Shown here: positions 16,817 to 58,559 of the stretch, one piece after another
Numbering within the stretch: position 1 is the stretch's first letter
Layout of the letters: each line of letters starts with the position of its first letter
NCBI RefSeq assembly: GCF_044704955.1
Contig: NC_091985.1
Span: forward strand, 41,230,001-41,294,000
Direction: 5' to 3'
DNA: 64,000 nucleotides
Source: Pristiophorus japonicus
Taxonomy: Eukaryota
The notes under the pieces: generated by a model
The model's database searches: none
The model's input: only the letters and a program-made list of their open reading frames with translations
Told to the model about the DNA's origin: nothing
Position numbers and translations under genes: made by a program

Positions 16817-17032
16817 CCCCATTGTGGATACCTGTGGGCTGTAATAACACAACCCTATTGTGGAATCCTGTGGGCTGTAATAACACAACCCCATTGTGGA
16901 TACCTGTGGGCTGTAATAACACAACCCCATTGTGGATACCTGTGGGCTGTAATAACACAACCCCATTGTGGATACCTGTGGGCTGTAATAACACAACCCC
17001 ATTGTGGATACCTGTGGGCTGTAATAACACAA
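16817..17032. repeat. Minisatellite, 6 x 36 bp
   Basis: Unit ccccattgtggatacctgtgggctgtaataacacaa; five identical copies and one variant (second copy). Confidence 0.97.
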
Positions 17033-25770: not shown

Positions 25771-25929
<159 letters not shown>

Positions 25930-35067: not shown

Positions 35068-38000
35068 TGTTATGTATTTAACCCCTTGCAACCTGTATCA
35101 CACTACCACCAGAGGGGCCTACCTGTTGGAGAACTGAGGGATCCCAGCATCCCTTGTATACAAGCAGGCCACCCACGAGATACCTGCACTCGAGTCTTAT
35201 TAAAGGAGCTAAGGTCAAACTTACTCATTGCATACAGTACTCAGTTTCATCCTTTATTATGAGTATATCAATTGGCGACGAGGTTACAAATAACCATGCG
35301 AAAATGCAAAGAACAGTTGGTATCCTGGAGAAGTTCTCAGAAGGGGACGATTGGGAGGCCTTTGTGGAGAGACTCGACCAATAATTTGTGACCAACGAGC
35401 TGGAAGGGGACGAGAACGCTGCCAAACGAAGGGCGATCCTCTTTGCTGTCTGTGGGGCAACAACCTATGGCCTCATGAAGAATCTTCTAGCTTCGATAAA
35501 ACCAACAACTAAATCCTATGAAGAATTGTGTACGCTGGTCCGGGAGCACCTGAATCCTAAGGAAAGCGTTTTGATGGCAAGATATCGGTTCTACACATGT
35601 CAACGGTCGGAGGGCCAGGAAGTGGCGAGCTATGTCGCCGAACTTAAGGCGCCTCGCAGGACATTGTGAATTTGAGAGATTCCTAGAATAAATGCTTAGA
35701 GACTTTTTTGTACTGGGCATTGGCCATGAGACAATCCTTCGCAAACTGTTGACTGTTGAAACTCCGAATCTAAGCAAAGCCATAACGATAGCCCAGGCAT
35801 TTATTTTCACTAGCGGCAACGCCAAACAGATTTCACAGAGTAAAGAGGTTTCGGCCAGTACTGTGCACAAAATAACAGCGTTTTCGAGCAGGAATATACA
35901 CGGCAGAACGTACACACCGACTGCTGCTGCACGACCTCAGATGACCCAGAGTCCGCCATCAATCGTTAATGCGAGGCAGTTAACATCTTGTTGGCATTGT
36001 GGAGGTGATCATTGGGCCCATCAATGCAGCTTCAAGCACTATGCATGCAAAGGCTGCAGAACAATGGGACACCTCCAGCGAATGTGCAGGCGAGCTGCAA
36101 ACCACCAAGTTGCAGAGGAAGATCAATCCACTGTGGATCAGGCTGAATTGGAGACTCGTACCGAGGAGGCAGAAGTGTACGGGGTACACGCATTCACCAC
36201 GAAATTTCCACCAATAATGAAATTTAAACTGACCGGAATGCCAGTATCTATGGAACCGGACATGGGTGTGAGTCAGTCCATAATGTGTCAAAAGGCCTTC
36301 GACAGGCTGTGGTGCAACAAGGCACACAGGCCCAAGCTCAGCCCCATTCACACCAAACTAAGGACTTACACCAAGGAACTAATCCCTGTAATTGGCAGTG
36401 CAGAAGTCAAAGTCTTCTATGATGGAGCAGTACATGAACTCCCACTGTGGATCGTGCCAGGGGATGGCCCCACACTGTTTGGCAGAAGCTGGCTGGGAAA
36501 GATCCGCTGGAACTGGGACGACATCCGAGCGCTTTCGTCCGTCGACGACGCCTCATGTGCCCAGGTTCTGAGTAGATTTCCATCGTTGTTCGAGCCAGGC
36601 ATTGGAAGCTTCTCAGGGCGAAAGTGCAGATCCATTTGGTTCCTGGTACGCCACAAGGCACGGGTGGTACCATATATGATGCGTGATAAAGTGGAAATTG
36701 AGTTGGACAGGCTGCAGCGAGAAGGCATCATCGCGCCGGTGGAATTCAATGAGTGGGCCAGTCCGATTGGCACAGTCAGAATTTGTGGACTATAAAGTAA
36801 TGATTAACCGTTTCTCGCTGCAGGACCAATACCCGCTACCCAAGGCAGATGACCTATTTGCGACCCTGGCTGAAGGGAAGACATTCACCAAGTTGGACCT
36901 GACCTCGGCCTACATGACGCAGGAGCTGGAAGAGTATTCGAAAGACCTCACCTGCATCAACACACACAAAGGTCTGTTCATCTATAACAGGTGCCCATTC
37001 GGGATTCGGTCGGCCGCATCAATCTTCCAACGGGACATGGAGAGCCTGCTAAAGTCGGTTCCTCGCACCGTGGTTTTCCAGGACGAACTAGTGGTTACAG
37101 GTCGGGACACCATTGAGCACTTGAAGAATCTGGAAGATGTTCTGTGTTGGTTGGATCGTGTGGGACTCTGGTTAAAACGCTCGGTGTGTTTTCCTGGCGC
37201 CGGACCTCGAGTTCCTGGGAAGAAGAATCGCAGCAGACGGCATCATACCCACCGACGCCAAGACGGAGGCCATCAAGAACGTGCCGAGACCACAGAACGT
37301 GACGGAGCTGCAGTCGTTCCTGGGACTCCTTAACTATTTCGGTAATTTCCTATCTGGGTTAAGCAACCTGCTAGAACCCCTACATGCGCTACCGCGCAAG
37401 GGAGACGACTGGGTATGGGGGAATTCACAAGAAGCTGCCTTTGAGAAAGCCAGAAATCTGTTGTGTTCAAACAAACTGCTTGTCTTGCATAACCCTTGTA
37501 AAAGATTAGTGCTAGCTTGCGATGCATCGTCATATGGGGCCGGGTGTGTGTTACAACAGACTAACGAATCGGGGATTTTGCAACCGGTCGCTTATGCATC
37601 CAGGAGTTTGTCCAAGGCCAAAAGGGCCGACAGCATGATTGAAAAAGAGGCTCTGGTGTGTGTTTACCGGGTAAAAAAAAATGCACCAGTACTTATTTGG
37701 CCTCCAGTTTGAGCTTGAAACTGACCACAAGCCGCTCATATCGCTGTTCTGAGCAAATGTATTAATACCAATGCCTCTGCCCGCATTCAAAGATGGGCGC
37801 TCACGCTGTCAGCATACAACTATATAATCTGCCACAGACCAGGCACACACAACTCATCATCATAGGCAGTCCCTCGGAATCGTGGAGGACCTGCTTCCAC
37901 TCCCAAAGTGAGTTCTTTGATGGCTGAACTGTCCGATACGAGAGCCACAGAACCTGTTATAGGTGGGACAGACATTCGTCGGGGGAAAGAGTCGGTGGGG

Positions 38001-40466
38001 CTGGTTTGCCATGCTCTCCTTCCGCTGCCTGCGCCTGGCCTCTTCATGCTCCTTGCGTTGAGACTCAAAGAGCTCAACGCCCTCCCGGATGGACTTTCTC
38101 CACCTCTGGCGGTCTGCGGCCAGGGTCTCCCAGGTGTCTGGTGATGTCGCACTTTACGAGGGAGGCTTTGAGGGTGTCCTTGTAACGTTTCCTCTGCCCA
38201 TCTTTGGCTCGTTTACCATGAAGGAGTGCCGCATAAAGCATTTGCTTCGGGAGTCTCGTATCTGGCATGCGAACTATGTGGCCTGCCCAGCAAAGCTGGT
38301 CAAGTGTGGTCAGTGCTTCAATACTGGGGATGTTAGCCTGGTCAAGGACCTTGATGTTGGTGCGCCTGGCCTCCCAGGGGATTTGCAGGATCTTGCGGAG
38401 ACATTGTTGATGGTATTTCTCCAGCGACTTGAGGTGTCTTCTGTACATCGTCCATGCCTCAGACCCATACAGGAGGGCGGATATTACTACAGCCCTGTAG
38501 ACCATGAGTTTGGTGGTAGATTTGGGCCTGTCTTCAAACACTTTTCCGCAGGCGGCCGAAGGCTGTGCTGTCGTACTGGAGGCGATGCTGAATCCCCGCA
38601 TCAATGTCTGCCTTTGTTGGTAAGAAGCTCCCGAGGTATGGGAAATGGTCCACGTTGTCCAAGGCCGTGCCGTGGATCTTGATGATTGGAGGGCAGTGTT
38701 GTGCGGCGATGACAGGCTGGTGAAGGACCTTTTGTCTTACGGATGTTAAGCATAAGGCCCATGCTTTCATATGCCTCAGTGAATACATTGGCTATATCCT
38801 GCGCTGATGCTCTCAGTCAGCTACCATTGCCCACCACCGGGGTGGAAATGGCACAGCCTGCGAACTTGTTCATGGTGATGATGCATTCGAAAACCAAGTG
38901 TCACCCATTACAGCCTGCCAGATCAGGACCTGGACCAGCCAGGATCCTTTACTGTCCTTGGTTTAAAAAAAAACTGTGTCCTCCACGGGAGCTGGTTCAG
39001 CGTCCCAGCAGAGATGTAGGAGGCGATTAAGCCGTTCCACAGGCGCAAAGATGAAATGTCCCTGCAGGCGAACTGTCTCTTGTGGGGTAATTGCATGGTC
39101 TTGCCCAAGAAAGGCAGAAACACGTTCATTCATGAACTGCACAGCACCCACTCAGGCATTGTAATGATGAAAGCCATAGCCAGATCCCATGTGTGGTGGC
39201 CCGGAATCGACTCAGATTTAGAGTCATGCGTGTGGCAGTGCAACACTTACTCTCAGCTGAGCAATGCACCCAGAGTGGCACCACTAAGTTTGTGGTCGTG
39301 GCCTTCCAACCGGGCTGAGGATCCACATGGACTATGCAGACCCATTTCGAGGCAAAATGTTCTTGGTTGTCTTGGATACTTAATCAAAATGGATTGAATG
39401 TGCAATAATGTCTGTAAGCACGTCCACGGTCACCATTGAAAGCCTACAAGCCATGTTTGCCACGCATGGTCTGCCTGATGTCCCAGTCAGTGATGAGCCG
39501 TGCTTCACCAGTGCTGAATTCAAGGAATTCATGACCCGCAATGGGATCAAGCACGTCATATCTGTCCCGTTCCAGCCTGCATCCAATGGCCAGGCAGAAC
39601 AGGCAGTTCAGACCATCAAGCCAAGTTTGAAACGCGTGTCGGAAGGCTCCCTGCAGACCCGACTGTCCCGTGTGCTGCTCAGTTACCGCACCAGACCCCA
39701 CTCATTCACCGTGGTTCCCCCAGCCGAGCTGCTCTAGAAAAGGGCACTCAAAACAAGGCTCTCTCTTGTCCACCTTGATCTCCATGATCACGTGGAGGGC
39801 AAGCGGCATCAACAAAGTGTGTACCCTTGACCACGCAAATTTGTCAGGCGAAATTGAGGTCAGTGAACCCTGTGTTTGTACCCAAGTAGGGACATAGTTC
39901 CAAATGGCTCGCCGGCACGGTCATAGCCAAAGAGGGCAGCAGGGTGTTCCAGGTCAAATTGGCCAATGGATTAACGTGCAGAAAACATTTGGACCAAATC
40001 AAATTGTGGTTCACCAACAGCTACAAACAACCCGAAGAAGACGCCACCAACTTTGACCTTCCAACACACACACACACATGGCAACCGACATCATGGTTGA
40101 CCACGAAGCCGAACTCAACATACCCAGCAGCCCAGTGAAGAACTAACCAAGTCACCCACACCCATATTTGTACCGAGCCGATCGACGAAGGAGTGAAAAG
40201 CCCCAAATCGTCTCACCTTGTAAATAAGTGTACTATTAACTTTGAGGGAGTGATGTTATGTATTTAACCCCTTGTAACCTGTATCACACTATCACCAGAG
40301 AGCCTACCTATTGAAGTCCCAAGGGATCCCAGCATCCCTTGGGAGCACTGCATATAAGCAGGCCACCCACAAGGTACCTGCACTCTGGAGTCTTATTAAA
40401 GGAGCTAAGGTCACACTTGCTCATTGTTCACGGTACTCAGTTTCATCCTTTATTATGAGTGTATCA
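35068..40466 (+). mobile_element. Full-length degenerate Gypsy (Mag-clade) element
   Basis: LTRs 35068-35270 and 40254-40466 (TG...CA); perfect 5-bp TSD TAACC; PBS TGGCGACGAGG (tRNA-Ser GCT type) at 35273; gag with two Cys/His knuckle motifs, PR, RT, RH and IN remnants. Confidence 0.95.
37856..38800 (-). mobile_element. RTE LINE 3' fragment nested in the Gypsy pol
   Basis: YRAVVISALLYGSEAWT..WAGHIVRMPDTRLPKQ; (ATG)n tail; Gypsy RPGTxNCADALS codons split around it. Confidence 0.9.
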
Positions 40467-41818
40467 TAACCTATGTCATTGTTGGAGCATCATCAGCAAA
40501 AGGGCTGCAACACTTAAAGGAGAAGGCCCACACCACTTTCTTTGGCATCTAAGGATGGGTAATGCAGCCTTGCCCGTATCACTACATCCTGAGAACATAT
40601 TTAAAAAAATAAAAATGAGGGTAATCAGAAACTCTTGTAAATCTGTGGGAACTTGTAGCATTGCTTCATGTTGCAACAGTTTAAAATGCCTTGTGGGATG
40701 ACTTTCTGTCTTTGTGAAGAAGACAATGCCCAAAACTCAGCTTGACATTGAAGTGGGAGGAGGAGGAATCCTTGTCTACATACAAAGATGCAAAGAATGC
40801 TTCAGCCAGTCCACATTGGTTGGACAGACACGTCCAGGATTGTGACGTTAATAAATGTAGAGTTACCACTGTGAGTCCTAATGGCTGAACTATCAAAAGC
40901 TTTGTTTTTCAAAAACTAGCCAAGTGCATACCTCGGAGCTTGATTAAGAATTATTGGGACGTATCTGAGGTCCTCTGCACACATCCGCCTCTCCCACTCA
41001 CCCCCTCAACACTAAAAACACACGTGTCGTAAACATAAATAAATCTGTAGAATGTTTACATACTGTATTAATAATAAAGCAATTCCTATCAAGAAATTGA
41101 TTAAGGTTGGAGCAGTTTTTCTGCAGTATGGTGAGTTTTACTGTGGGGCCCCATATTTGCCAGGGCCCCAGTAGGCCCATGCATTAATCCACCTTTGCAT
41201 CTTCTGGTTAAAACAATGTTGGATGTTACTCCTAACCAACGTGGTCTATAAGCTATCCTCAGTCATTGTGTGTCTGTTTTATGTTTTGATGGGCAGTTCG
41301 CTCTCCAGTGGCACTGCTGGCTGGGAATAAATGTGACAGCTGCCGGCAATTACTTTCATAGCCTCATGGCATAATGATGAGCTGAAACTCGATGGAGCTT
41401 CAAGCAAGATTTATGTATTTCTGAAATGCTGTTGGAAGAATTCTGATGTATCTTGAAATGACTCATTTTTGTTGGATTCAAAACTTTTTTCTTTTTACAT
41501 AACGGAGTTAAAATACGAACGGAAAATAATGCATCTCTATCTTTATTGTGCTGATCATTGTTTGCTTCTGTATAAAACTTAATCAGTCTGATATGTTGCT
41601 TTAGCTCGAGATATATCATCTGTAAGCGTGATTTTTTCTGCCAAATCGCAATTCCAATGCACATCCCAACAGCACAATGTTCTTTGCTACCCTGTGCTTA
41701 GCTAACCTGGGTATTTAGTATATTGCAAGTTCTGTTTTTAGAAGGTTGCAGCATAGAAGCATGCCATCATTTATCCTGTCAGCCAATATAATCTCACTCT
41801 TTTCTTCTACTCTCCCTT

Positions 41819-44800
41819 TGTTGTGGAATATTTCAAAATACTCTACACAAGTCTGACATCAGGAGTTCAAACAGTCTTCAATCACACGCATGGGGCGACA
41901 ACTTGCTTTCTGTCCTTAGCCAAGTCTCTCCAAATTGATGCAGAAATTTAGATATTTGTACTCAGAAATGATGCATTGTACACTGTCCCCGCCTACTTTC
42001 TAGATTACATCATTAGTCTTCAATTCCTGTTTAGTACCAGATGTTCACCTTAGTTTTGATAACAGACAGTAGACAGTTGCAGTCAGTGTTATATAACACT
42101 TAAACAGTCACTTTATAAACTGTTGTAGTCAGCAGTTAATCTGACCTATGACACACATTGTTGCAATTGATTTATTACTGGCAGTTGGGGTCAGCAGATT
42201 TAGCTTAATCACATTTCGCTTTATCTTGTTTAGCCTTTGATATGTCCTTACTATACAGTTTAAATGCACACGAGGCTCATACTTGAGAGAAGGTCACTCA
42301 GTGACCAGTTACCTTTATTACCCAGACCTCAAGAGGCAGATGGTGGGTGGAGCTTTCACTTTTAGACCGGAAAGTGCAGGTTAGGAGTGTCTCCCACAAG
42401 TTCGCCCCCTGTGGTCAGTGTTCTCAAGGTGTACAACTTAGGTCAGCTTATACATGGGTTACAATTACAATTGAATACATGACATCACCTCCCTCCCCCC
42501 CCCCCCCAAAGTCTTATTGGGATCACAGGTTAAGTCTCTCTGGTGGTTTACGCTCCCTTATAGAGCGCCTGAGTTGGGGTTCCGGTTGTTGGGTGCTGGT
42601 CTGAGTGTCTGCTGTTTGTGGTGCCTCAGGCCTGTCCAGGCTGCCCACAGTGACTGGGCTCTCCTCAACTAGGTTCCGGTGTTCGGTCACTTGTGCTGGA
42701 GTAAACTCTACGTCGCGTTCTTTCTCTGCTTCTTCTATGGGGTTGCTGAACCTCCTTTTAGTTTCATCTGCGTGTTTGCGGTAGATTTGTCCATTGGTAA
42801 GTTTAACTACCAAAACCCTATTCCCCTCTTTGGCAATCACAGTGCCTGCGAGCTATTTGGGCCCTGCAGCGTAATTAAGGACAAAAACAGGGTCATTGAC
42901 ATCAATACATCGCGCCTTCGCATTCCTGTCATGGCAGTCACATTGCGACCGACGCCTGCTCTCAACAATTTCTTTCATAGTGGGGTGTATAAGGGATAAC
43001 CTGGTTTTGAGCGTCCTTTTCATTAGCAGCTCTGCGGGTGGAACCCCTGTGAGCGAGTGTGGTCGGGATCTATTGGCCAACAGGAGGCATGATAAGCGGC
43101 TTTGTAGGGAACCCCCTTGGATTCTGAGCATCCCATGTATGATTAACTGCACTGCTCGTTCCGCCTGGCTGTTTGAGGCCAGCTTGAACGGTGCCGTTCT
43201 GACATGGTTGATTCCATTGCCTGCCATGAAGTCCTGGAATTCAGTGCTTGTGAAGCACGGGCTATTGTTGCTGACCAAGACGTCCGGTAGACCATGGGCG
43301 GCGAACATTGCCTGTAGACTTTCTACCGTGGCAGAGAATGTGCTTGAATTTAAAATGGCACATTCAATCCATTTGGAGTAGGCGTCTACTACAACCAAAA
43401 GCATTTTTTTCCATGAAAGGACCTGCGTATTCCACATGGATGCGTGACCATGGCTTGGCGGGCCAGGACTAGGGGCTAAGGGGGGCTTCCATGGGTGCGT
43501 TGCCCAGCTGAGCACCTGCGAACACACGGTTCCAGGTCTGCATCTATCTCTGGCCACCAAACATGTGACCTGGCAATTGCCTTCTTCATGACAATGCCTG
43601 GGTGCTCATTGTGAAGTTCTCTGATAAACACCTCTCTGCCCTTCTGGGACATGACTACTCTGTTTCCCCACAGTAGGCAATTGGCCTGAATCGAGAGTTC
43701 ATCCTTGCGCCTATGAAATGGTTTAAACTCCCCAGGGCATGCCCCGTACGTGGCTGCCCAGTCCCCATTCAGGACACATTTCTTAACTAAAGACAGTAGC
43801 GGGTCTTTATTTGTCCAGACTTTAATCTGACGGGCTGTCACAGGTGAGCCTTCGCTTTCGAAAGCTTCAACAGCCATGACCATCTCAGCATCATGCTCAG
43901 TTGCCCCCTCAGTGGTGGCTAGTGGGAGCCTGCTGAGTGCATCGGCGCAGTTTTCAGTGCCCGGTCTGTGCCAAATTGTGAAGTCATAGGCGGCTAACGT
44001 AAGTGTCCACCTCCTGTATGCGGGCCGATGCATTCGCAGTTATGGCCTTGTTGTTGGCCAAAAGGGACGTTAGGAGTTTGTGATCTGTCTCCAGCTCAAA
44101 TTTCCTGCCAAACAGGTACTGGTGCATTTTTTTTACTGCATATACACATTCTAGCGCTTCCTTTTCTACCATCCCATAGCCCCTTTCCGCCTGGGACAGA
44201 CTTCTGGAGGCATAAGCTACCGGCTGTAACTGACCATTGGCATTCACATGCTGCAACACACACCCGACCCCATAGGACGACGCATCGCACGTTAAAACTA
44301 GTTTCTTACACTGGTCATATAACGTTAACAGTTTGTTGGAGCAGAACAAATTTTGTACTCTATCAAAAGCCCTTTCCTGGCTGTCCCCCCAGACCCATTT
44401 GTGACCTTTGTGTAGGAGCACGTGTAGCGGCTCTAACAGCGTGCTCAATTTGGGAAGAAAGTTACCAAAATAGTTCAGGAGCCCCAGGAACGAACGCAGC
44501 TCCGTCGTGTTACGGGGTCTGGGTGCTCTCTGGATCGCTTCCATTTTGGACGCCATGGGTCTGATCCCCTCTGCTGCTACCCTCCTCCCCAGGAATTTTA
44601 CCTCTGGAGCTAAGAAGACACACTTCACCTTTTTCAGTCGCAGCCCTACCTGGTCCAGTCTGTGTAGCACCTCCTCCAGGTTGTGGAGGTGTTCTTCAGT
44701 ATCGCGACCCGTGATGAGGATGTCGTCTTGAAAAACCACCGTCCTTGGAATCGACTTGAGGAGGCTTTCCATATTTCGCTGAAAGATCACGGCGGCCGAA

Positions 44801-46990
44801 TGGACATCTGTTATACTCAAACAACCCCTTGTGTGTCGTGATGGTGGTCAGCTTCTTCAACTCACTTGCCAGCTTCTGGGTCATGTAAGCTGAGGTCAGG
44901 TCCAATTTTGAGAAAAGTTTGCCACCGGATAGCGTCGCAAAGAGGTCCTCCACTCTCGGTCTTGGAGTGACACCCGATTGATGGTGGCCTTGTAATCGCC
45001 ACATATCCTGACCGACCCATCCACCTTGAGCACTGGCACAATCGGGCTCGCCCAGTCATTGAATTCGGCTGACGAGATGATGCCTTCCCTCAGCAGACGG
45101 TCCAATTCGCATTCTATCTTTTCCCACATCATGTACGGCACCGCTCTGGCCTTGTGGTGTACTGGCCTGGTGTCTGGGTTTATGTGAATCACTACCTTGG
45201 TCCCCATGAAAGTGCCGATGCCGGTTTGAAATAATGTCAAATTTGCCCAGGACCTGTGCGCATGATACAGAAGAAATTGCATTGACATCGCCGCATTTCA
45301 AGTTCATGATAGCAAGCCAATTCCTCAGTGTGGGACCGTCCCCTGGGACAATCCAGAGTGGCAACCTGTTCTCCGAATCTTTGTGGGTCACGACTACCAT
45401 GGCGCTGCCTAGCACCGGAATGATCTCCTTTGTATATGTCCGTAGCAGTGCGTCAATCGGCAATAATTTTGGCCTCCTGTCCTTGGACACCCACAACCTT
45501 TTGAACTGTTTGATACTCCATCAGGGACTGGCTGGCCCCCGTGTCCAGCTCTATTAATACTGGGATGCCATTGAGGAGCACTTTCATCATTATCGGTGGT
45601 GTCCTGGTATATGAACTGTATATGTGCTCCATATGAACTCGCTGAACTTCAGCTTCCAGCGATTTCCCCCAGTATTCATTTGGCCTCGAAGGGCTTACAT
45701 CGGGCCCGTTCTCCTCATACATCAACCTGGCTGCAGGCTTCCTGCACATACGCGCCAAGTGACCGCTGACGTTGCAGTTTCTGCAGGTATATTGCTGATA
45801 CTTGCAAGCTCTGGCTGGGTGTTTGCCTCCACACCTCCAGCAAGAGCTGGAGGCCCCATTGTTGGAAACAAAAGGTCCATCACTAGTCGATCGTCTCTGA
45901 CTGTCTCTGTAGCTGTCCTTAAGCGCACCATTAATAGATGTTGATGGCCCCATTACTGGCAGCATTGTCCATTGCGATGGCATGAATCGCCGTTCAGCTA
46001 GCCATTGTCTCTGTTGAATTCCCCTTTTGGGTTCGACTGCATGCTGGGGCATGTCCGATTGCCCTTGTCTGCCGAGAGAACTGTGTGTCGTGTTAACAAT
46101 GTTGACTCCCGCATTTGAGCCAAGAGTTTTGCTATAAATCATTCTGGTCTCTTCCTCCCCTGAGAGAATTGTCTGGGCTTTCAGAGCTGCCGCTCCCAAG
46201 GTCAAGTCTTTGGTCTCTATCAGTTTCCTGAAAACCCCAGCGTGCCCGATGCCCTCAATAAAAAAAAAAGTCTTGCAGCATCTCCGCTCTGCATGCATAT
46301 GGGAACTTAGATAGCGTTGGCAGTCGCCGGAGATCTGCCACGAAGTCTCGCTATGTGCATACTGCTCACCGGTTTAAGGTGTTCCCCAATCAACTTACTG
46401 AGCTCTTCGAACGTCTTGTCCGCCGGCTTCTCTGGCGCTAGAAGGTCCTTCATCAGGGTGTACGATCTGGATCCACAAACCGTCAGGAGATGAGCCCTGC
46501 TTTTGTCGGCCGAATCCTGTCCCAACCATTCATTAGTGATAAAACTTTGCTGTCATCTCTCAACAAAGTCGTCCCAATCGTCCCCAGCACAGTACCTCTC
46601 TATCGTGCTGCTAGTGGCCATGCTCGCGTGGTTTAACTCCCAGTTTCTCGTCGCCAATGATATGTCCTTACTATACAGTATAAATGCACAAGGCCCATAC
46701 TTGAGAGAAGGTCACTCTGTGACCAGTTACCTTTATTACCAAGACCTCAAGAGGCAGATGGTGGGCGGAGCTTCCCCTTTTACACTGGAAAGTCCAGGTT
46801 AGAAGTGTCTCCCACAAGTTCGCCCCCTGTGGTCAGTGTTCTCAAGGTGTACAACTTAGGTCAGCTTATACATGGGTTACAATGACAATTGAATACATGA
46901 CAGCATGGTCTATCGTTTTACCACTCAAACTGTTGTCGAAGATATCCTTGGTTTTCCTGCCACATAAGCTATTCCCAGGTTCCCCTTTCA
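41819..46990 (-). repeat. ERV 3' LTR (41819-42237 plus 46903-46990), split by a Gypsy insertion
   Basis: Colinear with 57876-58362 once 42238-46902 is removed; minus strand begins TGAAAGGGG and ends CCACAACA. Confidence 0.92.
42238..46902 (-). mobile_element. Full-length degenerate Gypsy (Mag-clade) element inserted in the ERV 3' LTR
   Basis: LTRs 42238-42484 and 46658-46902; PBS TGGCGACGAG; PPT; TSD gcctt/gcatg versus GCCTG in the intact 5' LTR; gag CWRCGGKH and CRNCNVSGH, PR LDTGA, RT VVFQDD, IN. Confidence 0.95.
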
Positions 46991-47010
46991 GTCCCCCCTT
47001 TTGGCCCTTT
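46991..47010 (-). promoter_or_regulatory. ERV polypurine tract
   Basis: AAAGGGCCAAAAGGGGGGAC immediately before the LTR start TGAAAG. Confidence 0.88.
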
Positions 47011-47159
47011 GCTATTATCGGCCCAAGATCGCCACTAAGGTCACCGCTAATAAGTCCTGATAGTCTGGATCATTGTCTGTCTGTAAATGTTCTCATACAT
47101 GGCTCTCTGTAGGTCAGCCTTTGTGGCCTATGCCAACCTTTTGGTTCTTAATCGCCTGC

Positions 47160-49272
47160 ATTTATGAGAGCAGCTTGCTATCGGGTACAGAGTGATTAAT
47201 AACTGTAGGGACACTTCTTATCCAGGGATGTATCCGGACATTGATGCCCAGTCCCATACCATGGGGGAGTGCCCAACGTTTTGATTTCTTCCCCAGTTTT
47301 CCTGATTTCTTCTTGTGCTGGTGGTATTGCTTCACCATTTTCTCCAGTTTTTCTGCTAACTGGGTTAGGTGTTTGGGGAGTTTTGGTATTTCGAGTCCCT
47401 CGGGAATTAGGTATTCCCGCAGCTCCCCTCTTATCCTCTCTGGCATTGAGACCCACCCGTTGTCTTTTATATATTGCTATCAGATGTTGATGTCCGACAG
47501 TTGTTGGTGTTTTTGGGCAGAAACAGAAGCTTGCATTGTTATTCCGGCATACAAGAAGTCTGTAGATATACTGTTTTTCACTTGTAGTCATACAGTATTT
47601 CCGTGCCCTGGTATGCAGCATGGGACCTTTCCTTGGTGCAGCTGGTCTAGATTATCCCGGAGTGACCAGTTACCCATGCCCCCATAGGCGTGACATAGCA
47701 TTTTGTTTTTAATTTTTTTGATTCGCTCTGTTGGCATCTATTAGACAATTGGTGGTCTTCGCATGTGCCTCGAGAATGTGACTTATTCCCAACAGGGTTT
47801 TTACTGTGTTTGTCCCCAGCTGGCCTCTCTTTTGAGACTTGATATTTGTTTGTGTTAGCACCCGCTTGAGTTTGTCACTTAACTTTCCTAGTTCTTGGTC
47901 CACTGCCTCGATATCTAGTGAAGTTCCTGTGTTAAACACGGTCCCCACATCCCCCAGTGTGCTTCTTTTCCTTCTACTGTACATGGTCCATGTCTCTGAG
48001 CCATACAGGAGGGTGGGTATTACCACAGCCCTGTAGACCATGAACTTGGTGACAGTTTTAAGGGTCTGGTCCTCAAACACACTTTTCCTCAGGCAGCCGA
48101 AGGCTGCATTGGAGGTGGTGTTGAATATCGTCAATGTCAGCTCTTGTTGATAAGATGCACCAACATTAGCGTCCTCAACCAGGCCAACATCCCCAGCATT
48201 GAAGCACTGACCACACTTGATCAGTTCCACTGGGCAGATCACATTGTTCGCATGCCAGACCCAAGACTCCCAAAGCAAGCGCTCTACTCGAACTCCTTCA
48301 CGGCAAACGAGCCAAAGGTGGGCAGAGGAAATGTTACAAGGACACCCTCAAAGCCTCCTTGGTAAAATGCAACATCCCCACTGACACCTGGGAGTCCCTG
48401 GCCAAAGACCGCCCTAAGTGGAGGAAGTGCATCCCGGAGGGTGCTGAGCATCTCGAGTCTCGTCGCCGAGAGCATGCAGAAATCAAGTGCAGGCAGCGGA
48501 ACGAGCATGCGGCAAGCCAGTCCCACCCACCCCTTCCCTCAACGACTATCTGTCCCATGTGTGACAGGGACTGTGGTTCTCGTATTGGACTGTTCAGCCA
48601 CCTAAGGACTTATGTTAAGAGTGGAAGCAAGTCTTCCTCGATTCAGAGGGACTGCCTATGATAATGATTTCCTTCAACCCCACTTCCTTTTGCCTTTCCT
48701 ACTACGAGTCCCTGATCTTTGGGCAGCTCAATCTATTATTTTTTATCAGTGTTTTATATAGCTGTTGCGTTTGTGGACTACACAGTGAGGGGAGATAGCC
48801 CCATGCCAAATTCAATACCACAGGCATGAGCTCATGGCATACATTATCATACAATATTCTCTGATTGTCCACTAATACCAGTCCACCTTTGGGACTTGGG
48901 GTTGTCTCCGGACAATCCCAGGGTTTTGGTGTCATCCTAGTGGTTGTTGCGGGTTCTGTTTGCAGGATACATCTGCCACCACTGGGAATTGTCAGCCACA
49001 GCGAATGATGAACACTCCCTTTCCTGCCAGTCAGCCTTATTTGTGAATGTTTCGTTCGAGACCCAACAGATCACCATGGAACAATTGGGCTCAGGAATAA
49101 TGCAGGATTACCCTTTCTCGTTCTCCTGGCTGTTGGGTAGGATTGTTGTCCGTCCGTCTTCACACTTTACGCGCACGGGTGCCCCTGTGCTCGCATGGAG
49201 TATCCCGTTGGCGCATGTCACTCCATCCTCTGTATTATATCGGATCGCACCCCCCACCGGTGGTTATTTTAC
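47160..49272 (-). pseudogene. env: ERV env remnant (class I fusion protein, loki/F-like), interrupted by RTE
   Basis: Cys-rich N-terminal part with NxS/T sites; PKGGLVLVDNQRILYDNV..PVVLNL; basic cleavage site (x)RKR|STLGDVGTVFNTGTSL; heptad DIEAVDQELGKLSDKLKRVL; LRDNLDQLHQGKVP; second heptad LTQLAEKLEKMVKQY..PPWY. Confidence 0.75.
47975..48667. mobile_element. RTE 3' fragment with 5' inversion, inserted at the env cleavage site
   Basis: 47975-~48150 minus strand (LLYGSETWTMYS) and ~48155-48667 plus strand (NIPSIEAL..RLPKQ; atgataatga tail); TSD tttccttc at 47967-47974 and 48668-48675. Confidence 0.88.
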
Positions 49273-49310
49273 CTGCGGGAAGATAGTATGGTCTTGGTCG
49301 TCTCCAAGGG

Positions 49311-50220
49311 TTAGTTGCCATTACTACTATATCTCTTAAGCTGGGTCCAGTGTTTCCACCGTCCCTTTCCATTCATATCTATGCATGCATACATATTGCT
49401 TGTCGGTATGATTTTGTGGGGTCCAGTCCACCGCGGGGCAAACCCTGGTTGCCCTGGCAATGCTTGGATCATCACTGAGTCCCCTACCTTCAGTAGGGGT
49501 TCGATTGTTTCCACCATTTTGTTTCCCTGATCTCGAATAGTCTGATGGTCCCTTACCTCCTGTCACAGAGCTTTAAGCTGTTCATCGAATATTTTAACAA
49601 TTTTTGATTCGATCCCTGATTGGCCCTAATTCTGCGCTTCCCGTGGAGGTTCCTTCAGGTAGGCATATTGCCAGTCATTAACTCATACAGGGTCTTCCGG
49701 TTGGGTGTTGCACATAGGCGCATTAATATACATGGTAATACACCTGATCATGATTTTCCCGTTTCTGTGATAGCTTTGGCTTTTGCTGTTTTAAGAGTTC
49801 GGTTCATATGTTTAACCATTCCTGAGCTTTGTTGGTTATATGGTATGCGAAATCGTTGTTGGATACCTAATAATTTACAGGCCTCTTTCAATACCTTTCC
49901 TGTAAAGTGGATTCCCTGATCGGAGCCTATTTGCAAAGGAACCTCCCCCCCCACCCACAATCTTGGGATAATTTTATATGCAAATATTTGGGCTACCATT
50001 CTAGCGGAGCAATCTCTTGTGGGGTATGCCTCTACCCACCATGTGAATTGGTCTATTATTACCAGGCGGTACGTTTGGTAACGGTCCCGTAAAATCTATT
50101 TGGAGATTCTCCCATAGTCCCTTCGGTCCAGGTTGATGTGTCATTTGGATCCTTTCGGTCATCCGGGATTATGTTGGGCGCATATGATGCAGCGTTGGCA
50201 ATGTTTAGCCACGTCCCTAC
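49311..50220 (-). pseudogene. pol: ERV integrase remnant
   Basis: Across frameshifts: CQRCIICAQHNPG, WENLQIDFTGPLP, LVIIDQFTWWVEAYPT, SDQGIHFTG, IPYNQQSSGMVKHMNRTLK, and C-terminal LKVGDSVMI..PRWTGPHKI..WKHWTQLK. Confidence 0.9.
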
Positions 50221-53003
50221 TGTAGTATATGGAGAATGAGTCAGACTGAACACTGTGAGCTCAAAGTAAAGTGTGACCTTGGTCTTTTATTGCAGGTCTC
50301 CAGAGTGCCTCTCCAAGAGTGCCTCTCCAACCTGTGAAGCCTCTATATACCTGTGCTCCCAAGGGATTATGGGATCCCTTGGGACTCCAGGGGATGAGCC
50401 CTCTGGTGGCTGTACAGAGTAAATGCAAGTATACATATATAACAACACTTTTTTTTTCCCCCGTCTCCTCCCCCCCCCCCCCCCCCAAAGTCAATAATGT
50501 AACTATTTACAATATGAGTCGACCTGGGGCCCTTCTTGCCCTGGTTGATCGCCCCGGTGTGAAAGCTGGTGTTGTTTAATCATTTGTTGGGCCCTCGCTG
50601 GCCTGCTGTGCAGCTGGCCTTGCTGGGCTGCCTGGTGTGTTGGGCCCTGCAGGGCTGCTGTGGATGATGGGTCCTGCTTTGTGATCAACCGTGGTGCCGG
50701 TTGCCACTGGTGTGTATGTTGGGGGAATCAAAAAAGGTAGGGTCCAAGGTGGGTTGCTCAGGATAGTCTGTAAATCTGAGTTTGATTTGGTCCAAGTGTT
50801 TCTGATGAATGAGTCCATTTGAAAGTTTGACTCGAAACACCCTGCTCCCCTCTTTGACCACGACAGTGCCGGGAAGTCACTTGGGGCCTTGTCCATAATT
50901 TAATACAAATACAGGATCATTGATTTCAATCTCACGTTTGCGCTATCGTGGTATGCACTTTGTTGAAGCTGCCTGCTCTCTACCTGTTCATGTAGATCAG
51001 GATGAACTAACGAGAGCCTTGTCTTAAGTGCTCTTTTCATGAGCAGTTCAGCAGGTGGGATCCCAGTGAGTGAGTGGGGTCTCGTGCGGTAGCTAAGCAG
51101 GACTCTGGATAGGTGAGTCTGCAGTGAGCCTTCAGTTACCCTCTGCAAGCCTTGCTTGATGGTTTGCACTGCTCTCTCTGCCAGACCATTGGACACTGGT
51201 TTAAATGGGGCAGATGTGACCTTTGAGATCCCGTTGTGGGTCATGAATTCTTTGAACTCAGCACCGGTGAAACATGGCCCGTTGTCGCTCACCAGGACAT
51301 CGGGTAAGCCGTGTGTGGCAAACATGGCCCACAGGCTTTCAGTGGTGGCAGCGGACGTGCTAGCCGACATTATCTCACATTCAATCCACTTGGAGTACGC
51401 GTCTACAACCACAAGGAACATTTTACCCAAGAATGGATCTGCATAGTCAACGTGTACCCTAGATCACGGTTTGGAGGGCCACGACCATAAACTTAGCGGC
51501 GCCTCCCTAGGTACATTGTTTAACTGCGAGCATGTATTACATCTGTTAACGCAGGACTCTAAGTCTGCGTCAATACCGGGCCACCACACGTGGGATCTGG
51601 CTATCGCTTTCATCATTACGATGTCTGGGTGGGTACTGTGGAGGTCATTGATGAAGGTGTCTCTGCCCTCCTTGTGGATCATTACTCGATTACCCCACAG
51701 AAGGCAGTTTGCCTGTAGATACATTTCAGCTTTGTGCCGCTGGAACGGCTTTATTCTCTCCCTGCATTTCCACTGGGACACTGGACCAGCTCCCGTGAAG
51801 CACACAGCTTTTGACTAGGGCTAATAAGAGGTCCTAGCTTGTCCAGGTTTTGATCTGCCGGGCAGTGACGGATGATTGCTCACTCTCAAATGCTTCCATA
51901 ACCATGGCTAAATCTGCGGGCTGTGCCATTTCCACCCCCGTGGTGGGCAATGGCAGCCTGCTGAGAGCATTGACGCAGTTTTCTGTGCCTGGCCTGTGGC
52001 GTAGTTGTAGGCGGACAACATGAGCACCCATCTCTGGCTGCGGGCCGATGCGTTGGTATTTATCCCTTCACTCTCGGAAAACGGGGATATGTGGCTTATA
52101 GTCAGTTTCCAATTTGAATTTGAGCCCAAAAAGGTATTGATGCATTTTCTTTAACCCATAAACACACGCTAACGTTTCTTTTTCAATCATGCTGTAGGCG
52201 GTCTCAGCCTTGGACAGACTCCTGGATGCATAAGCAAGCAACCGGTTTTAGTTTCCCGAAATCATTAGCTTGTTGCAATACATAACCGACGCCATATGAC
52301 GATGCATCACATGCTAGTACCAAACGCTTACATGGATCGTACAACACAAGCAATTTGTTTGAGCATAACAATTTTTTTGCTTTTACAAAGGCATTTTCTT
52401 GGCTTTTGCTCCAAACCCATTCACCCCCTTTTCGTAGTAAGACATACAGTGGTTCTAGCAGTGCGCTGAGACCTGGTAAGGGGTTACCAAAGTAGTTCAA
52501 GAGTCCCAGAAACGACCGCAACTCCGTTACGTTCTGTGGCCTCGGTGCGTTCTCGATTGTCTCCGTCTTTGCGTTGGTGGGCCTGAGGCCATCCGCCGCA
52601 ATCCTCCTTCCCAAAAAACTCCACTTCAGGCGCCAGGAAAACACACTGAGCGTTTTAACCTGAGCCCCACGTGGTTGAGTCGACTAAGAACCTCCTCCAG
52701 GTTCTGCAGATGATTTGCTGTGTTCCGGCCTGTGACCAAGATGTCGTCCTGGAAGACCACAGTGTGCAGGACCGACTTCAGTAAACTTTCCATGTTTCTC
52801 TGGAATATCGCTGCCGCTGATTGGATTCCAAACGGGCACCTGTTATAAACAAAAAGACCTTTGTGCATGTTGATGCAGGTGAGGGCCTTCGATGATTCCT
52901 CCAGTTCCTATGTCAAGTCAGATCCAGATTCGTGAACGTCTGGCGCGAGGAAAGAGGTCGTCAGCTTTTGGTAGTGGGTATTGGTCCTGCAGGGAGAAAT
53001 GAT
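50221..53003 (-). mobile_element. Gypsy (Mag-clade) 3' half nested in the ERV pol
   Basis: 3' LTR 50221-50444 plus IN, RH and RT (VVFQDDILV); gag, PR and 5' LTR missing. Confidence 0.92.
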
Positions 53004-54363
53004 TGGCCTAACATCTGTTGTTGGGAAAATGCTGGAGTCCATTATTAAGAAGGCGGGACATTTGGAAAAGCATAATTCAATCAAGCAGAGTCAACATGGT
53101 TTTATGAAAGGGAAATCATGTTTGAAAAATTTGTTGTAGTTCTTTGAGGATGTAATGAGCAGGGTGGATAAGGGGGAACCAGTGGATGTGGTGTATTTGG
53201 ATTTTCAGAAGGCATTCGATAAGGTGCAACATGAAAGATTACTGCACAAGATAAAAGTTCACAGGGTAGGATAGAGGATTGGCTAACTAACAGAAAACAG
53301 AGTCGGAATAAATGGGTCATTTTCCTGTTGGTAAACAGTGACGAGTGGGGTGCCGCAGAGATCGGTGCTGGGTCCTCAACTATTTACAATCTCTATTAAT
53401 GACTTGGATGAAGGGACTGAGTGTAATGTAGCCAAGTTTGCTGATACAAAGATGGGTGGGAGAGCAAATTGTGAGGAGGGCACACAAAATCTGCAAAAGG
53501 ATATAAACAGGCGAAGTGAGTGGGCAAAAATTTGGCACATGGAGTATAATGTTGGAAAGTGTGAGGTTATCCACTTTGGCAGAAAAAATAGAAAAGCAAA
53601 TTATAATTCAATAGGAGAAAAATTGCAAAGTGCTGCAGTACAGGGGGACCTGGGGGTCCTTGTGCATGAAACACAAAAAGTCAGCATGCAGGTACAGCAA
53701 GTAATCAGGAAGGCAAATGGAATGTTGGCCTTTACTGCAAGGGGGATAGAGTAGAAAAGCAGAGAAGTCCTGCTACAATTGTACAGGAGATTGGTGATGC
53801 CACACCTAGAGTACCGCGTACAGTTTTGGTCTCCGTATTTAAGGAAGGATATACTTGCATTGGATGCTGTTCAGAGAAGGATCACTCGGTTGATTCCGGA
53901 GATGAGGGGTTGGCTTATGAAGATAGGTTGAGTAGGTTGGGCCCATACACATTGGAGTTCAGAAGAATGAAAGGTGATCTTATTGAAACATGTAAGATAA
54001 TGAGGGGCTTGACAAGGTGGATACAGAGAGGATATTTCCATTCATAGGGGAAACTAAAACTAGTGGACATTGTCTCAGAATAAGGGGCCACCCATTTAAA
54101 ACTGAGATGATGAGGAATTTCTTCTCTGAGGGTTGTAAATCTGTGGAATTCGCTGCCCCAGGGAGCTGTGGAGACTGGGTCATTGAATATATTTAAGGCG
54201 GAGATATACAGATTTTTGAGCAATGAGAGAATAAAGGGTTATGGGGAGCAGGTAGGGAAGTGGAACTGAATCCATGATCAGATCAGTCATGATCTTATTG
54301 AATGGTGGAGCAGGCTTGAGAGGCCAAACGGCCTACTCCTGGTCCTATTTCTTAGGTTATGTT
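53004..54363 (+). mobile_element. CR1 LINE 3' part
   Basis: SGVPQRSVLGP..KFADTK..; 3' UTR tail. Confidence 0.92.
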
Positions 54364-54399
54364 CTCCCAAGCGGCCCTTCCTCTGGGGGCCGATTCTAC

Positions 54400-55800
54400 C
54401 TATTTCTTAGTCAACGACTTTACCAACTGCAGCAGTTGTTCCTTATTGAAGGTTTCTACAGGGATATCTCATCGATTGGTGCATACCTGTCCTGTGACCC
54501 TTGCCCTTCACTGCCTCCTCCCCATGCCCAGCAGCCCTTTGCCTCATGTCCCATTTTATTGCAGTTTCTGCACTGCAATCTTCCCCTATCTTTCCGTGGT
54601 GCCCTACAGTCTTGCCGGCGGTGTCCTGGCTTATTGCAGTTAAAACCTAACTCTGGGCTGTCTCCAGCTCCCACATATTCTTTTCCTTCTTTTGGTGGTC
54701 GCCTTTGGTTGCCTACTTCAGTGGCCCATCGCATTAGTTAGTCATAACCTTGCATGGTGACGAAGCCGGTTTTAAGAATAACTTGGTGCGTGCTGCTGAG
54801 CCCATTTTAAAAGATTTTTAGAAAGGCTGCATTATCTCGGATGAGACCCGCCACTATATCCGAGTGTGCCTGAAAGCTGGTGTATTTCCTTTCACCATAG
54901 TCGTGTGCAGATTCACCTTTATTTTGGGTCACTTCCATTATCAATCCTCAATTTATAGGGACTATTCCCATTATGCGTGTTACTTTGGCTCTGAATAGCG
55001 TGTATTCGGCCTCACATTGTGCCAACGTGGGTGCTACATCTGCGCTCCAGGTTCCATCCTGGAACCGTTGGCCCAACTGTTACCACATACTTTCCGGAAT
55101 TTTTGCCCATACCAGCTTCCACATCTCAGTTATGTAGAGTGGCAGATACGCATTTCTCTTTTTTTTTAACAAAATTTGGCATTACTCTGTCTAGCTTTTA
55201 TTTTTGGGAGTAATAGCAACTTCAACTTGTTGCCCGGGAGAATGGTACATCTGTAGTCCGGATTACATCCAGTCCTGCTGCCACTAGCGGGACAGCATTT
55301 GGTTGGGTAGGTGTTCCTGGGATGAATTCCAATTTAATAGGAGCTAGTGAGAATGGTTTGCCATAGTAGGGTTGTGCATCCCACCCATGATCCCTGTCAT
55401 AATCTGCTGCCTCTTCCTAAATTTACCCAGTCTATGGGTCCGTCATCGTCATTGTCTGTCATGTCTGGTGCTGTCGGCACCGTTGGTGACTGTGATACAG
55501 TCACGCTTGCGCATGGTTTCCTAACTTTTGCTTAGCTTTTTTTGCGACCGCCTCGTTAACATTTTTGCTTAATTCATAATATGGTTGAGTTACCATTAGG
55601 CATGCCTTTTCTCCCTGATGTTTCTTCTCATCTTCCAACCACTTATTTTCCTTGGCGGGAATTGCACTGGGATCCCATTTATTTTTCAACATCTTTACTA
55701 TAATCTATTTATTCCTATCTGCTAAATACTTGTTCAGGGATCCCTCAGGTCCACACTCCAAGTCGTCATCTCCCTTGGTTTTGTTGTCAGCAGTATCTCT
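54400..55800 (-). pseudogene. gag: ERV gag remnant
   Basis: VPTAPD (55466-55477); MHR-like IN*GLIMEVTQNKGESAHDYGERK (~54888-54960); knuckles (G)FNCNKPGHRRQDC and CRNCNKMGHEAKGC; terminal ..KSLTKK-TAG. Confidence 0.85.
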
Positions 55801-55980
55801 CCTTTCAAGCTTTTACCGAGTGAGATGGATACTTGCAATTTATACCGACTTTATATGTTAAATCGCAATGTTCTTAACATATACTCTATGCTACCGATTC
55901 AATCCAGATAACACAAAATTACAAAAGTCATTTTACCTGGGGTAGTTAGTCGTAGACTGTGTGTAGTCTCGTTCAGACTT

Positions 55981-57722
55981 ATAATGGGGAACAAAGAAAT
56001 GGCAGACCAATTGAACAAGTACTTCGGTTCTGTCTTCACAAAGGAAGACACAAATAACCTTCGGGATGTACTAGGGGACCGAGGGTCTAGTGAGAAGGAG
56101 GAACTGAAGGATATCCTTAGGCTGGAAATTGACGGGATTGAAGGCCGATAAATCCTAGGGCCTGATCGTCTACATCCCAGAGTACTTAAGGAAGTGGCCC
56201 AAGAAATAGTAGATGCATTGATAATTTTCCAGCAGTTTATCGACTCTGGATCGGTTCCCATGGACTGGAGGGTTGCTAATGTAACACCACTTTTTAAAAA
56301 AGGAGGGAGAGAGAAAATGGGTAATTATAGACCGGTTAGCCTGATATCATTAGTGGGGAAAATGTTGGAATCAATCATTAATGATGAAATAGCAGCTCAT
56401 TTGGAAAGCAGTGATAGGATTGGTCCAAGTCAGCATAGATTTATGAAAGGGAAATCCTGCTTGACAAATCTTCTGGATTTTTTTGAGGATGTAACTAGTA
56501 GAGTGGACAAGGGAGAACCAATGGATGTGGTGTATTTGGACTTTCAAAAGGCTTTTGACAAGGTCCCACACAAGAGATTGGTGTGCAAAATCAAAGCACA
56601 TGGTATTGGGGGTAATGTACTGACGTGGATAGAGAACTGGTTGGCAGACAGGAAGCAGAGAGTCAGGGTAAACGGGTCCTTTTCAGAATGGCAGGCAATG
56701 ACTAGTGGAGTGCCGCAGGGCTCAGTGCTGGGACCCCAGCTATTTACAATATATATTAATGATTTAGATGATGGAATTGAGTGCAATATCTCCAAGTTTG
56801 TAGATGACACTAAACTGGGTGGCGGTGTGAGCTGTGAGGAGGACGCTAAGAGGCTGCAGGGTGACTTGAACAGGTTAGGTGAGTGGGCAAATGCATGGCA
56901 GATGCATTATAATGTGGATAAATGTGAGGTTATCCATTTTGGGGGCAAAAACACGAAGGCAGAATATTATCTGGATGGCGGCAGATTAGGAAAAGGGGAG
57001 TACAGTGAGACCTGGGGGTCATGGTCCATCAGTCACTGAAAGTGGGCATGCAGGTACAGCAGGCGGTGAAGAAGGCAAAAATGGTATGTTGGCCTTCATA
57101 GCTAGGGGATTTGAATACAGGAGCATGGAGGTCTTACTGCAGTTGTTCAGGGCCTTGGTGAGGCCTCACCTGGAATATTGTGTTCAGTTTTGGTCTCCTA
57201 ATCTGAGGAAGGACATTCTTGCTATTGAGGGAGTGCAGCAAAGGTTCACCAGACTGATTCCAGGGATGGCTGGGCTGTTATATGAGGAGAGACTGGATCA
57301 ACTGGGCCTTTATTCACTGGAGTTTAGAAGGATGAGAGGGGATCTCATAGAAACGTATAAGATTCTGACGGGACTGGACAGGTTAGATGCAGGAAGAATG
57401 TTCCCGATGTTGGGGAAGTCCAGAACCAGGGGACATAGTCTTAGGATAAGAGGTAGGCCATTTAGGACTGAGATGAGGAGAAACTTCTTCACTCAGAGTT
57501 GTTAACCGATGGAATTCCCTACCGCAGAGAGTTGTTGATGCCAGTTCATTGGATATATTCAAGAGGGAGTTAGATATGGCCCTTATGGCTCAGGGGATCA
57601 AGGGGTATGGAGAGAAAGCAGGAAAGGGTGACTGAGGGAATGATCAGCCATGATCTTATTGAATGGCGGTGCAGGTTCGAAGGGCCAAATGGCCTACTCC
57701 ATCTATTTTCTATGTTTCTATG
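55981..57722 (+). mobile_element. CR1 LINE inserted in the ERV leader
   Basis: 281-aa RT ORF at 56194-57039; tail tttctatgtttctatg; flanking gactt repeat. Confidence 0.93.
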
Positions 57723-57855
57723 ACTTGCAGGATTGGATCTCTCAGACCGCTGACACCATGCACACTTCTACTTGTCTTATTTGTGCGTGGTAATTGAAAA
57801 CGTGCTCACCCATTTTGACGTGTTTCCATCTGCCAGTGTCTGCCGTCCACTTGAA

Positions 57856-57873
57856 ATCCTGCCGACGATGCCA
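57856..57873 (-). promoter_or_regulatory. ERV primer-binding site, tRNA-Ser
   Basis: TGGCATCGTCGGCAGGAT, 16/18 match to the complement of the recalled vertebrate tRNA-Ser(AGA/TGA) 3' end ATCCTGCCGACTACGCCA; 2 nt from the LTR end. Confidence 0.88.
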
Positions 57874-57875
57874 AT

Positions 57876-58362
57876 TGTTGTGGAATATTTTAAAAATACA
57901 CTACACAAGTCTGACATCGAGAGTTCTACCTGTCTGTAATCGCATGTGTGGGGAGACAACTTGCTTTTTGTCCTTAGCCAAGTCTCTCCAAATTGATACA
58001 GAAAGTTAGAGATATTTATACTCCAATGACACATTGTCCAATGTCCCTGCCTACTTTCTAGATTACATCATTAGTCTTAATTCCTGTTTACTACCAGCTG
58101 TTCACCTTGGTTTCAATATCAGACAGTAAGCAGTTGCAGTCAGCATTACATAACACTTAGTTAGTTGTGGTCGGCAGTTAATCTGACTTATGACACACAT
58201 TGCTGTAACTGATTTACTACTGGCAGTTGAGGTCAGCAGATTTAGCTTAATCACATTTTGCTTTATTTTGTTTAGCCTGGTCTATTGTTTTACCACTCAA
58301 GCTGCAATCCAAGATATCCTTGGTTTTCCTGCCACATAAGCTGGTCCCAGGTTCCCCTTTCA
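57876..58362 (-). repeat. ERV 5' LTR (487 bp)
   Basis: TG...CA termini; TATAAATA at 58020-58013 with upstream ATTGG motifs; homologous to the split 3' LTR. Confidence 0.92.
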
Positions 58363-58559
58363 TCCTTACTCTTTAATATTCCTCTTTTTCCATGCAATGA
58401 ATTTCCTATTTAAAAAGGAAATACAGACTCTGCTCCAATGGGAGTTTGTAGTAGATAATTTCACATTACAACAGCCCTCTGAATAAATGTATCTTAATTT
58501 TCTCTCTCAATTCGGTGATTATTTTGAACTTTTTGCCCTATCACCAATAATAATTCTTC

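Follow-up and report, generated by a model that had tools for sequence, protein, structure and literature searches.

The window analysed here is a 64-kb stretch of the 5.9-Gb genome of the shark Pristiophorus japonicus (C9:41,230,001-41,294,000; NC_091985.1) and contains, on its minus strand between positions 41819 and 58362, a broken endogenous retrovirus (ERV). We conclude with good confidence that this element is a dead copy in the germ line and that the retrovirus family from which it derives is canonical, forms a clade found only in sharks, likely belongs to the grade of the snakehead retrovirus (SnRV) and class III, and likely had an F-type envelope protein (Env). The copy has a layout bounded by long terminal repeats (LTRs), a primer-binding site for tRNA-Ser and a 5-bp target-site duplication; its siblings have a gag-TAG-pol arrangement and encode both a tether and an RNase H, and the family has a defined position in phylogenetic trees. 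A first-pass annotation of the same DNA had recognised the provirus and proposed that it was a lokiretrovirus; the structure stands and the assignment does not.

Structure of the provirus

Read on the minus strand, the element has the order 5' LTR, tRNA-Ser primer-binding site, gag ending in TAG, integrase (IN), env, purine tract and 3' LTR, with the following features:

58363..58367, minus strand, target-site duplication on the 5' side, four of five bases equal to 41814-41818
57876..58362, minus strand, 5' LTR (TG...CA), 487 nt
57856..57873, minus strand, primer-binding site for tRNA-Ser(AGA), 18 nt, two bases after the 5' LTR
54400..55770, minus strand, decayed gag, 44% to the Gag of a relative (E 7e-49), with a pair of zinc knuckles at about 54530-54650
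49326..50220, minus strand, integrase with most of its zinc-binding domain gone and with stops and frameshifts, 58% to protein P0022
48668..49330, minus strand, 5' part of env, a subfamily-specific head followed by the beginning of the shared core
47011..47974, minus strand, 3' part of env with an RKR cleavage site, helical repeat, Cys-rich stretch and membrane anchor
46991..47010, minus strand, polypurine tract, the same motif being present in loci L012, L015 and L017
46903..46990, minus strand, first 88 nt of the 3' LTR, 90% to 58274-58362 (89 nt)
41819..42237, minus strand, remainder of the 3' LTR, 84% to 57875-58278 (422 columns, E 3e-127)
41814..41818, minus strand, target-site duplication on the 3' side, flanking the 3' LTR

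The coordinates given by the first-pass annotation hold. The two LTRs are 84-90% identical, the 3' one being in two pieces divided by a Gypsy element that has its own LTRs. The flanks, previously read as a 5-bp duplication ccctt/tcctt, are AAGGA and AAGGG on the minus strand (tcctt and ccctt on the plus strand) and agree at four of five bases; elsewhere in the genome, a sibling likewise shows four of five, and in a young relative the 5-bp repeat is exact. The tRNA-Ser primer-binding site holds as well, with 16 of 18 bases matching the complement of the 3' end of the host tRNA-Ser(AGA) and 17 of 18 when a genomic variant is used. This 3' end was sought in the genome as a pattern without CCA, because the CCA is not genome-encoded. 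The pattern has 1,053 matches genome-wide, and large tandem arrays that match it, with a spacing of about 1.95 kb, occur on C23 at ~14-20.5 Mb.

The amber stop predicted for gag was found at 54402-54400, and the first pro codons continue in frame behind it. Both of the zinc knuckles that had been announced are present, the first without its first Cys. In the same way, the three integrase motifs reported earlier are all there, although the first lies in a different frame from the other two; this fragment matches Pfam rve with E 1e-8. The 3' part of env has lost ca. 150 codons near 47610. Protease (PR), reverse transcriptase (RT) and RNase H (RH) are gone from this copy, and the gap in pol, which begins about ten codons past the gag stop and ends at a Gypsy LTR, coincides with a block of later insertions (50221-54363; see below).

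Siblings and relatives of the window copy

In this genome the family has many copies, part of them young. With the integrase DNA of the window, at least 46 genome matches were obtained (40 of 869 candidates scored), and the LTR search that had been proposed as a follow-up gave, among 40 scored out of 138 first-look candidates, identities of 79-89% excluding the window itself. One sibling (L011/L012), 80-89% identical to the window, has both LTRs, leader, gag, pol, integrase and env, its pol filling ca. 3.06 kb between the positions at which the gag and integrase pieces of the window end. Its pro is in frame behind the gag TAG, and sibling frames match protease, RT, tether, RNase H and integrase in Pfam. 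The nearest named proteins come from Mustelus, Heterodontus and Chiloscyllium, and the six Env matches among 8,000 scored candidates were all from sharks; no confirmed member of the family was found in the viral and metagenome contigs searched.

A young sister family (L024, L028-L039, L045/L046) shares ~65% DNA identity in the integrase. It is abundant, all 149 matches scored from 17,505 first-look candidates having 95-100% protein identity. One of its copies has LTRs diverged by a Kimura two-parameter distance (K2P) of 0.007 and an exact 5-bp duplication, and the young copy L041/L042 sits inside a satellite array whose repeat period is ~47 nt.

Phylogenetic placement within the canonical retroviruses

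The RT and integrase phylogenies suggested by the first-pass annotation place the family within the canonical retroviruses, in a shark-only clade that nests in neither the lokiretroviruses, the gamma/epsilon (class I) retroviruses nor Gypsy. The first RT tree (LG+G4) comprised 64 rows, of which 54 were proteins chosen manually out of 331 stored ones; the others were 9 of 12 sibling loci and one Gypsy insert. The second, under a mixture model, had 48 of these rows, 16 being dropped. Lokiretrovirus proteins were gathered by their PFG signature and their rows labelled from the motifs of a published alignment and from the host, proteins of walleye epidermal hyperplasia virus 1 (WEHV1) and feline gammaretroviruses were gathered by name, and SnRV was represented by a 10,688-nt record.

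Under LG+G4, all 11 lokiretrovirus rows form one clade (support 100/99) apart from the canonical side (99/95), and the family groups with Mustelus and Heterodontus proteins (100/90). With the mixture model, the corresponding values are 99/98 for the lokiretroviruses, 100/99 for the canonical side and 94/99 for the shark clade. In both trees the class I clade (100/99) excludes the family, and the family also falls outside the Ty3/Gypsy metaviruses, siblings having in Pfam a tether plus RNase H and not a single RH. The element is therefore retroviral and not Gypsy, as first claimed, and its poor fit with gamma- and epsilonretroviruses was rightly noted: forcing the family together with the epsilon rows costs 125.7 log units (approximately unbiased test, p-AU 2e-7). 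The integrase tree, in which the window is represented by its own fragment, unites it with the siblings and a Mustelus protein (100/97) and keeps the lokiretroviruses apart (100/98); this tree was computed without CGIN1 itself and after dropping one row with no integrase match.

That the element is a chondrichthyan lokiretrovirus is, on these data, extremely unlikely. This reading would draw on an Env nearer to that of lokiretroviruses than to that of SnRV (z 10.1 against 1.2-2.6; see below) and on the dual RNase H of the siblings. Joining the family to the lokiretroviruses makes the RT tree worse by 68.5 log units (p-AU 0.0003), and the integrase tree likewise places these viruses elsewhere. 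The family shares the RT motif PQG with SnRV and class I, whereas PFG occurs in 24 of 24 published lokiretrovirus RT rows; CCHC knuckles are present in the family but in none of 55 proteins with the lokiretrovirus signature. A lokiretrovirus Pol query found in this genome matches of only 33-35% among 49 scored, a floor obtained with a stricter first look. In PMC7947760, lokiretroviruses are defined by an RT that is sister to those of all other retroviruses, an integrase near CGIN1 and an F-like Env, an smc gene being optional; a dual RH (tether plus RNase H) is given as common to all retroviruses, and none of the five chondrichthyan genomes screened is marked as positive for lokiretroviruses. 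Lokiretrovirus membership is thus rejected on RT, integrase, the PQG/PFG motif and Gag knuckles. The other traits on which the assignment had been built point elsewhere: the amber stop and the knuckles match SnRV, the tRNA-Ser site and 5-bp duplication are described for the class III element XtERV-S (PMC8278194), and an F core is also shared by foamy virus Env (PMC11468914).

Instead, the family likely represents a basal SnRV/class III grade. Its RT is 42% identical to that of SnRV (236 bits), the SnRV record has gag-TAG-pol in a single frame as the family does, and a knuckle-plus-WAxGGG motif at the last knuckle is near-identical in the two (z 14.8). Constraining the family to SnRV costs 10.7 log units and is not rejected (p-AU 0.27). 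The base of the canonical clade has no settled branching in these trees. Several points speak against this placement. The RT trees use sibling RTs, the window copy itself having none; the family stands apart from SnRV in both free RT trees and in the integrase tree; the primer-site sequence of SnRV is another one where the family has a Ser site; and the trees include no verified foamy, alpha-, beta-, delta- or lentivirus row, their scope on the foamy side being one row labelled as foamy-like by motif. We take the primer site of SnRV to be that of tRNA-Arg.

It is also very improbable that the family belongs with foamy-like viruses. The best match of its integrase in the PDB is the integrase of prototype foamy virus (PFV; 132 bits), and the shark foamy-like row lies near the family in the LG+G4 tree (84/8), a placement that has no support and is gone under the mixture model. 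By PDB scores the RT is a better match to murine leukemia virus (216 against 178 bits). Foamy viruses have a Gag without CCHC knuckles and make Pol apart from Gag; the family shows neither trait, having knuckles and an in-frame gag-stop-pol instead. The F core of foamy Env (PMC11468914) would also fit such a relationship.

An envelope of probable F type

Env was analysed through a natural frame of 739 aa from the young family and a Mustelus protein, to which the pieces in the window are related (29-44% identity to the family Env, E 6e-11 to 7e-10). In these shark Envs, a hydrophobic stretch or head at the N-terminus is followed by an RxKR site, a long amphipathic segment and a Cys-rich region, and an anchor lies at the C-terminus; the gamma-type motifs CX6CC and immunosuppressive domain (ISD) were found in neither of them. 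On this layout and on sequence likeness, the family Env is likely an F-type class I fusion protein. One shark Env scores 89 against a lokiretrovirus Env, compared with 40+/-5 for shuffled sequences (0 of 300 reach it, z 10.1), at an identity of ~22%, and the lokiretrovirus Env in question itself matches PF00523 (E 0.007). When an Env profile was used, the score was reached by 0 of 300 shuffles for each of two lokiretrovirus Envs and by 1 of 300 for the SnRV Env. In the atlas, the neighbours of the shark Env are F0/Baculo_F clusters (0.87-0.88 and 0.91-0.92). The F-like env claimed by the first-pass annotation is upheld as a layout together with a weak, non-random likeness to lokiretrovirus Env and F proteins, from which we infer the fold.

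An alternative, which we regard as improbable, is that Env is not F-like and that the likeness stems from coiled-coil composition. The best profile domain against the lokiretrovirus Env is indeed the helical stretch behind the cleavage site, and no support came from predicted folds. A separate match to the second lokiretrovirus Env lies, however, in the beta/Cys-rich part (profile 231-324, 0 of 300 shuffles), and a 227-column colinear alignment to lokiretrovirus Env (hhalign) extends to the Cys-rich domain.

A number of observations weaken the case for an F-type Env. The second shark Env is less convincing against the lokiretrovirus Env (z 3.6, 3 of 300 shuffles), the hhalign probability for lokiretrovirus and SnRV Env is only ~2% (E 0.02-0.03), the atlas 'recognition' value is low, and lokiretroviruses have a more hydrophobic peptide behind the cleavage site. 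Sequence searches of Pfam and the PDB with the shark Env gave no relevant match. AlphaFold models of the natural family Env were unusable (pLDDT 36 alone and 31 with an 11-row alignment), and Foldseek with the first of them gave no match at E<=0.001, which is uninformative.

Pol and Env affinities are thus in conflict, and the env may have been captured from a lokiretrovirus or another F-bearing virus by an element with canonical, SnRV/class III-grade gag-pol. Such a recombinant is a minority possibility, compatible with our preferred explanation and bearing on the origin of env only. Exchange of env has been documented for anamniote ERVs (10.1101/2021.11.23.469661) and in XtERV-S (PMC8278194), and the Env head varies between subfamilies here. 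Against capture, the SnRV Env is colinear past the cleavage site and has no gamma motifs (1 of 300 shuffles), which fits old inheritance, as does the F core of foamy Env (PMC11468914), and identity to lokiretrovirus Env is as low as noted above.

Between the window (48950-49250) and the young family (L037), the Env heads cannot be aligned whereas the cores can, which suggests that the putative attachment domain was swapped or evolves fast. An Ig-like head was considered and not retained: neither the young-family nor the SnRV head has a Pfam Ig match, and that of the window subfamily aligned to none of five targets (best probability 3%). A bullfrog ERV-derived protein (P0008) has a weak Ig-domain match (residues 1214-1291, E 0.012) directly after its integrase, where env would start. 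The SnRV Env (L040:6131-9535), free of CX6CC and ISD, aligns weakly to the shark Env past its last cleavage site (z 1.2 and 2.6 with the two shark Envs) and may be F-type too.

Comparison with known systems

With the SnRV clade and clade Huo (PMC12193657, PMC6001957), the latter spanning all vertebrate groups according to PMC6001957, the family shares canonical RT motifs, gag-TAG-pol in one frame, the knuckle motif and an Env without CX6CC or ISD. SnRV differs in having one knuckle where the family has two, an Env of 1134 aa compared with ~740, and a 3' accessory open reading frame (ORF), the env of the family running up to the purine tract and leaving no space for one. The SnRV primer site and 3' ORF are traits of SnRV itself and are not known to define the clade. 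SnRV-related ERVs with env have been reported for the elephant shark, a chimaera (CmiERV lineage I, PMC4422223).

Like lokiretroviruses (PMC7947760), the family has a putative F-like Env with RxKR, helical repeat and anchor as well as tether plus RNase H, and unlike them it has knuckles, the amber stop, PQG rather than PFG and a different RT and integrase position. XtERV-S/ERV-L class III elements (PMC8278194) resemble it in the tRNA-Ser(AGA/TGA) primer site, the 5-bp duplication and a non-class-I Pol. XtERV-S differs by a gamma-type transmembrane subunit (ISD, CX6CC) and a dUTPase region. The family showed neither of these, Pfam giving no dUTPase match in sibling pol frames. In the lokiretrovirus supplement, a scan with six primer-site 10-mers found no Ser-type site after an LTR, although line breaks may hide matches. 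Foamy viruses have a retroviral Env that structurally shares the core of paramyxovirus and pneumovirus F (PMC11468914), as the family would if its Env is of F type; they differ in gag-pol organisation and RT affinity, and the shark Env has no sequence match to the solved foamy Env.

SnRV-related ERVs with env in a chimaera (PMC4422223) and F-like Env in lokiretroviruses and foamy viruses are already known. What is likely new is a basal canonical shark ERV, not a lokiretrovirus, paired with an envelope that is likely of F type; shark ERVs combining canonical Pol with an F-type Env were not described in the literature searched, which did not extend to Repbase, Dfam and most subscription papers. 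A 2026 preprint still contrasts canonical retroviruses with lokiretroviruses on F-like Env, and Wang and Han, writing when F-like Env was known in lokiretroviruses only, left open four scenarios for the origin of retroviral env. Only tentatively do we propose that a deep, undescribed lineage of canonical retroviruses in sharks has an F-type Env and that the SnRV Env is of the same type. If so, together with lokiretrovirus and foamy Env, an F-type fusogen would be ancestral for retroviruses, and gamma- and beta-type Envs would have replaced it later, as in scenario 3 of Wang and Han. The combination of canonical Pol with an F-type Env, along with the hints from SnRV, makes the question testable by structure-based Env trees. 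Screens with gamma- and beta-type queries, as used in the anamniote Env survey (10.1101/2021.11.23.469661), would miss the family. The window copy is a fossil only and adds little beyond the family.

From ancestor to fossil

Retroviral biology, rather than the locus itself, suggests how the ancestor would have worked. Reverse transcription would have been primed by tRNA-Ser, Pol made through read-through of the amber stop, and the target cut by integrase with a 5-bp stagger. Env would have undergone furin-type cleavage at RxKR, the exposed peptide and helical repeats then driving membrane fusion through a six-helix bundle, like paramyxovirus F, and spread could have been by reinfection or retrotransposition. 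The present copy would have inserted in antisense orientation into an intron of a formin gene, accumulated divergence (LTR K2P ~0.12), received five later insertions and lost PR/RT/RH plus half of an inserted Gypsy element.

The host gene and the later elements are as follows:

25807..25893, plus strand, host formin (FH2) exon, Pfam E 3e-4
55981..57722, plus strand, insertion in the leader, LINE (long interspersed nuclear element) fragment, RVT_1 E 1e-32
50221..54363, both strands, insertions where PR/RT/RH are missing, half Gypsy plus LINE fragment
50221-~53000, minus strand, half Gypsy (Mag-like) element within this block
~53003-54363, plus strand, LINE fragment within this block
47975..48667, insertion in env, LINE fragment with an internal inversion, 76-81% to 37851-38631
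42238..46902, minus strand, full-length Gypsy (Mag-like) element inserted in the 3' LTR, own LTRs 94% (K2P 0.054)

A second FH2 exon lies 118 kb beyond the end of the window, so that two exons bracket the provirus, which is antisense to the formin gene and in the intron downstream of the 25807-25893 exon; the intronic location proposed earlier is thus correct, and the gene is presumably FMN2 rather than another formin. The copy is most likely inert at present, because its enzymes are lost and every gene is broken.

As had been claimed, five later elements interrupt the provirus, within four intervals, and pol is absent between gag and integrase. A single later deletion likely took PR/RT/RH, because half of the inserted Gypsy element is also missing. 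LTR divergences fall in the expected order, the two pieces of the provirus LTR (K2P 0.126 and 0.109) being more diverged than the LTRs of the nested Gypsy. With the rates of 2.2e-9 and 2.2e-10 per site per year used in PMC4422223, the provirus would be roughly 28 or 280 million years old, an age poorly bounded because the two rates differ so widely in outcome.

The LINE fragment in env matches 37851-38631 in two orientations. We take this fragment to be RTE-like and the one in the leader to be CR1-like. Further Gypsy (Mag-like) copies occur in the window at 9-2461 and 35692-40400, 66-81% alike to the two nested ones, the latter copy being broken by a LINE piece, and a 36-nt tandem repeat is found at 16781-17068.

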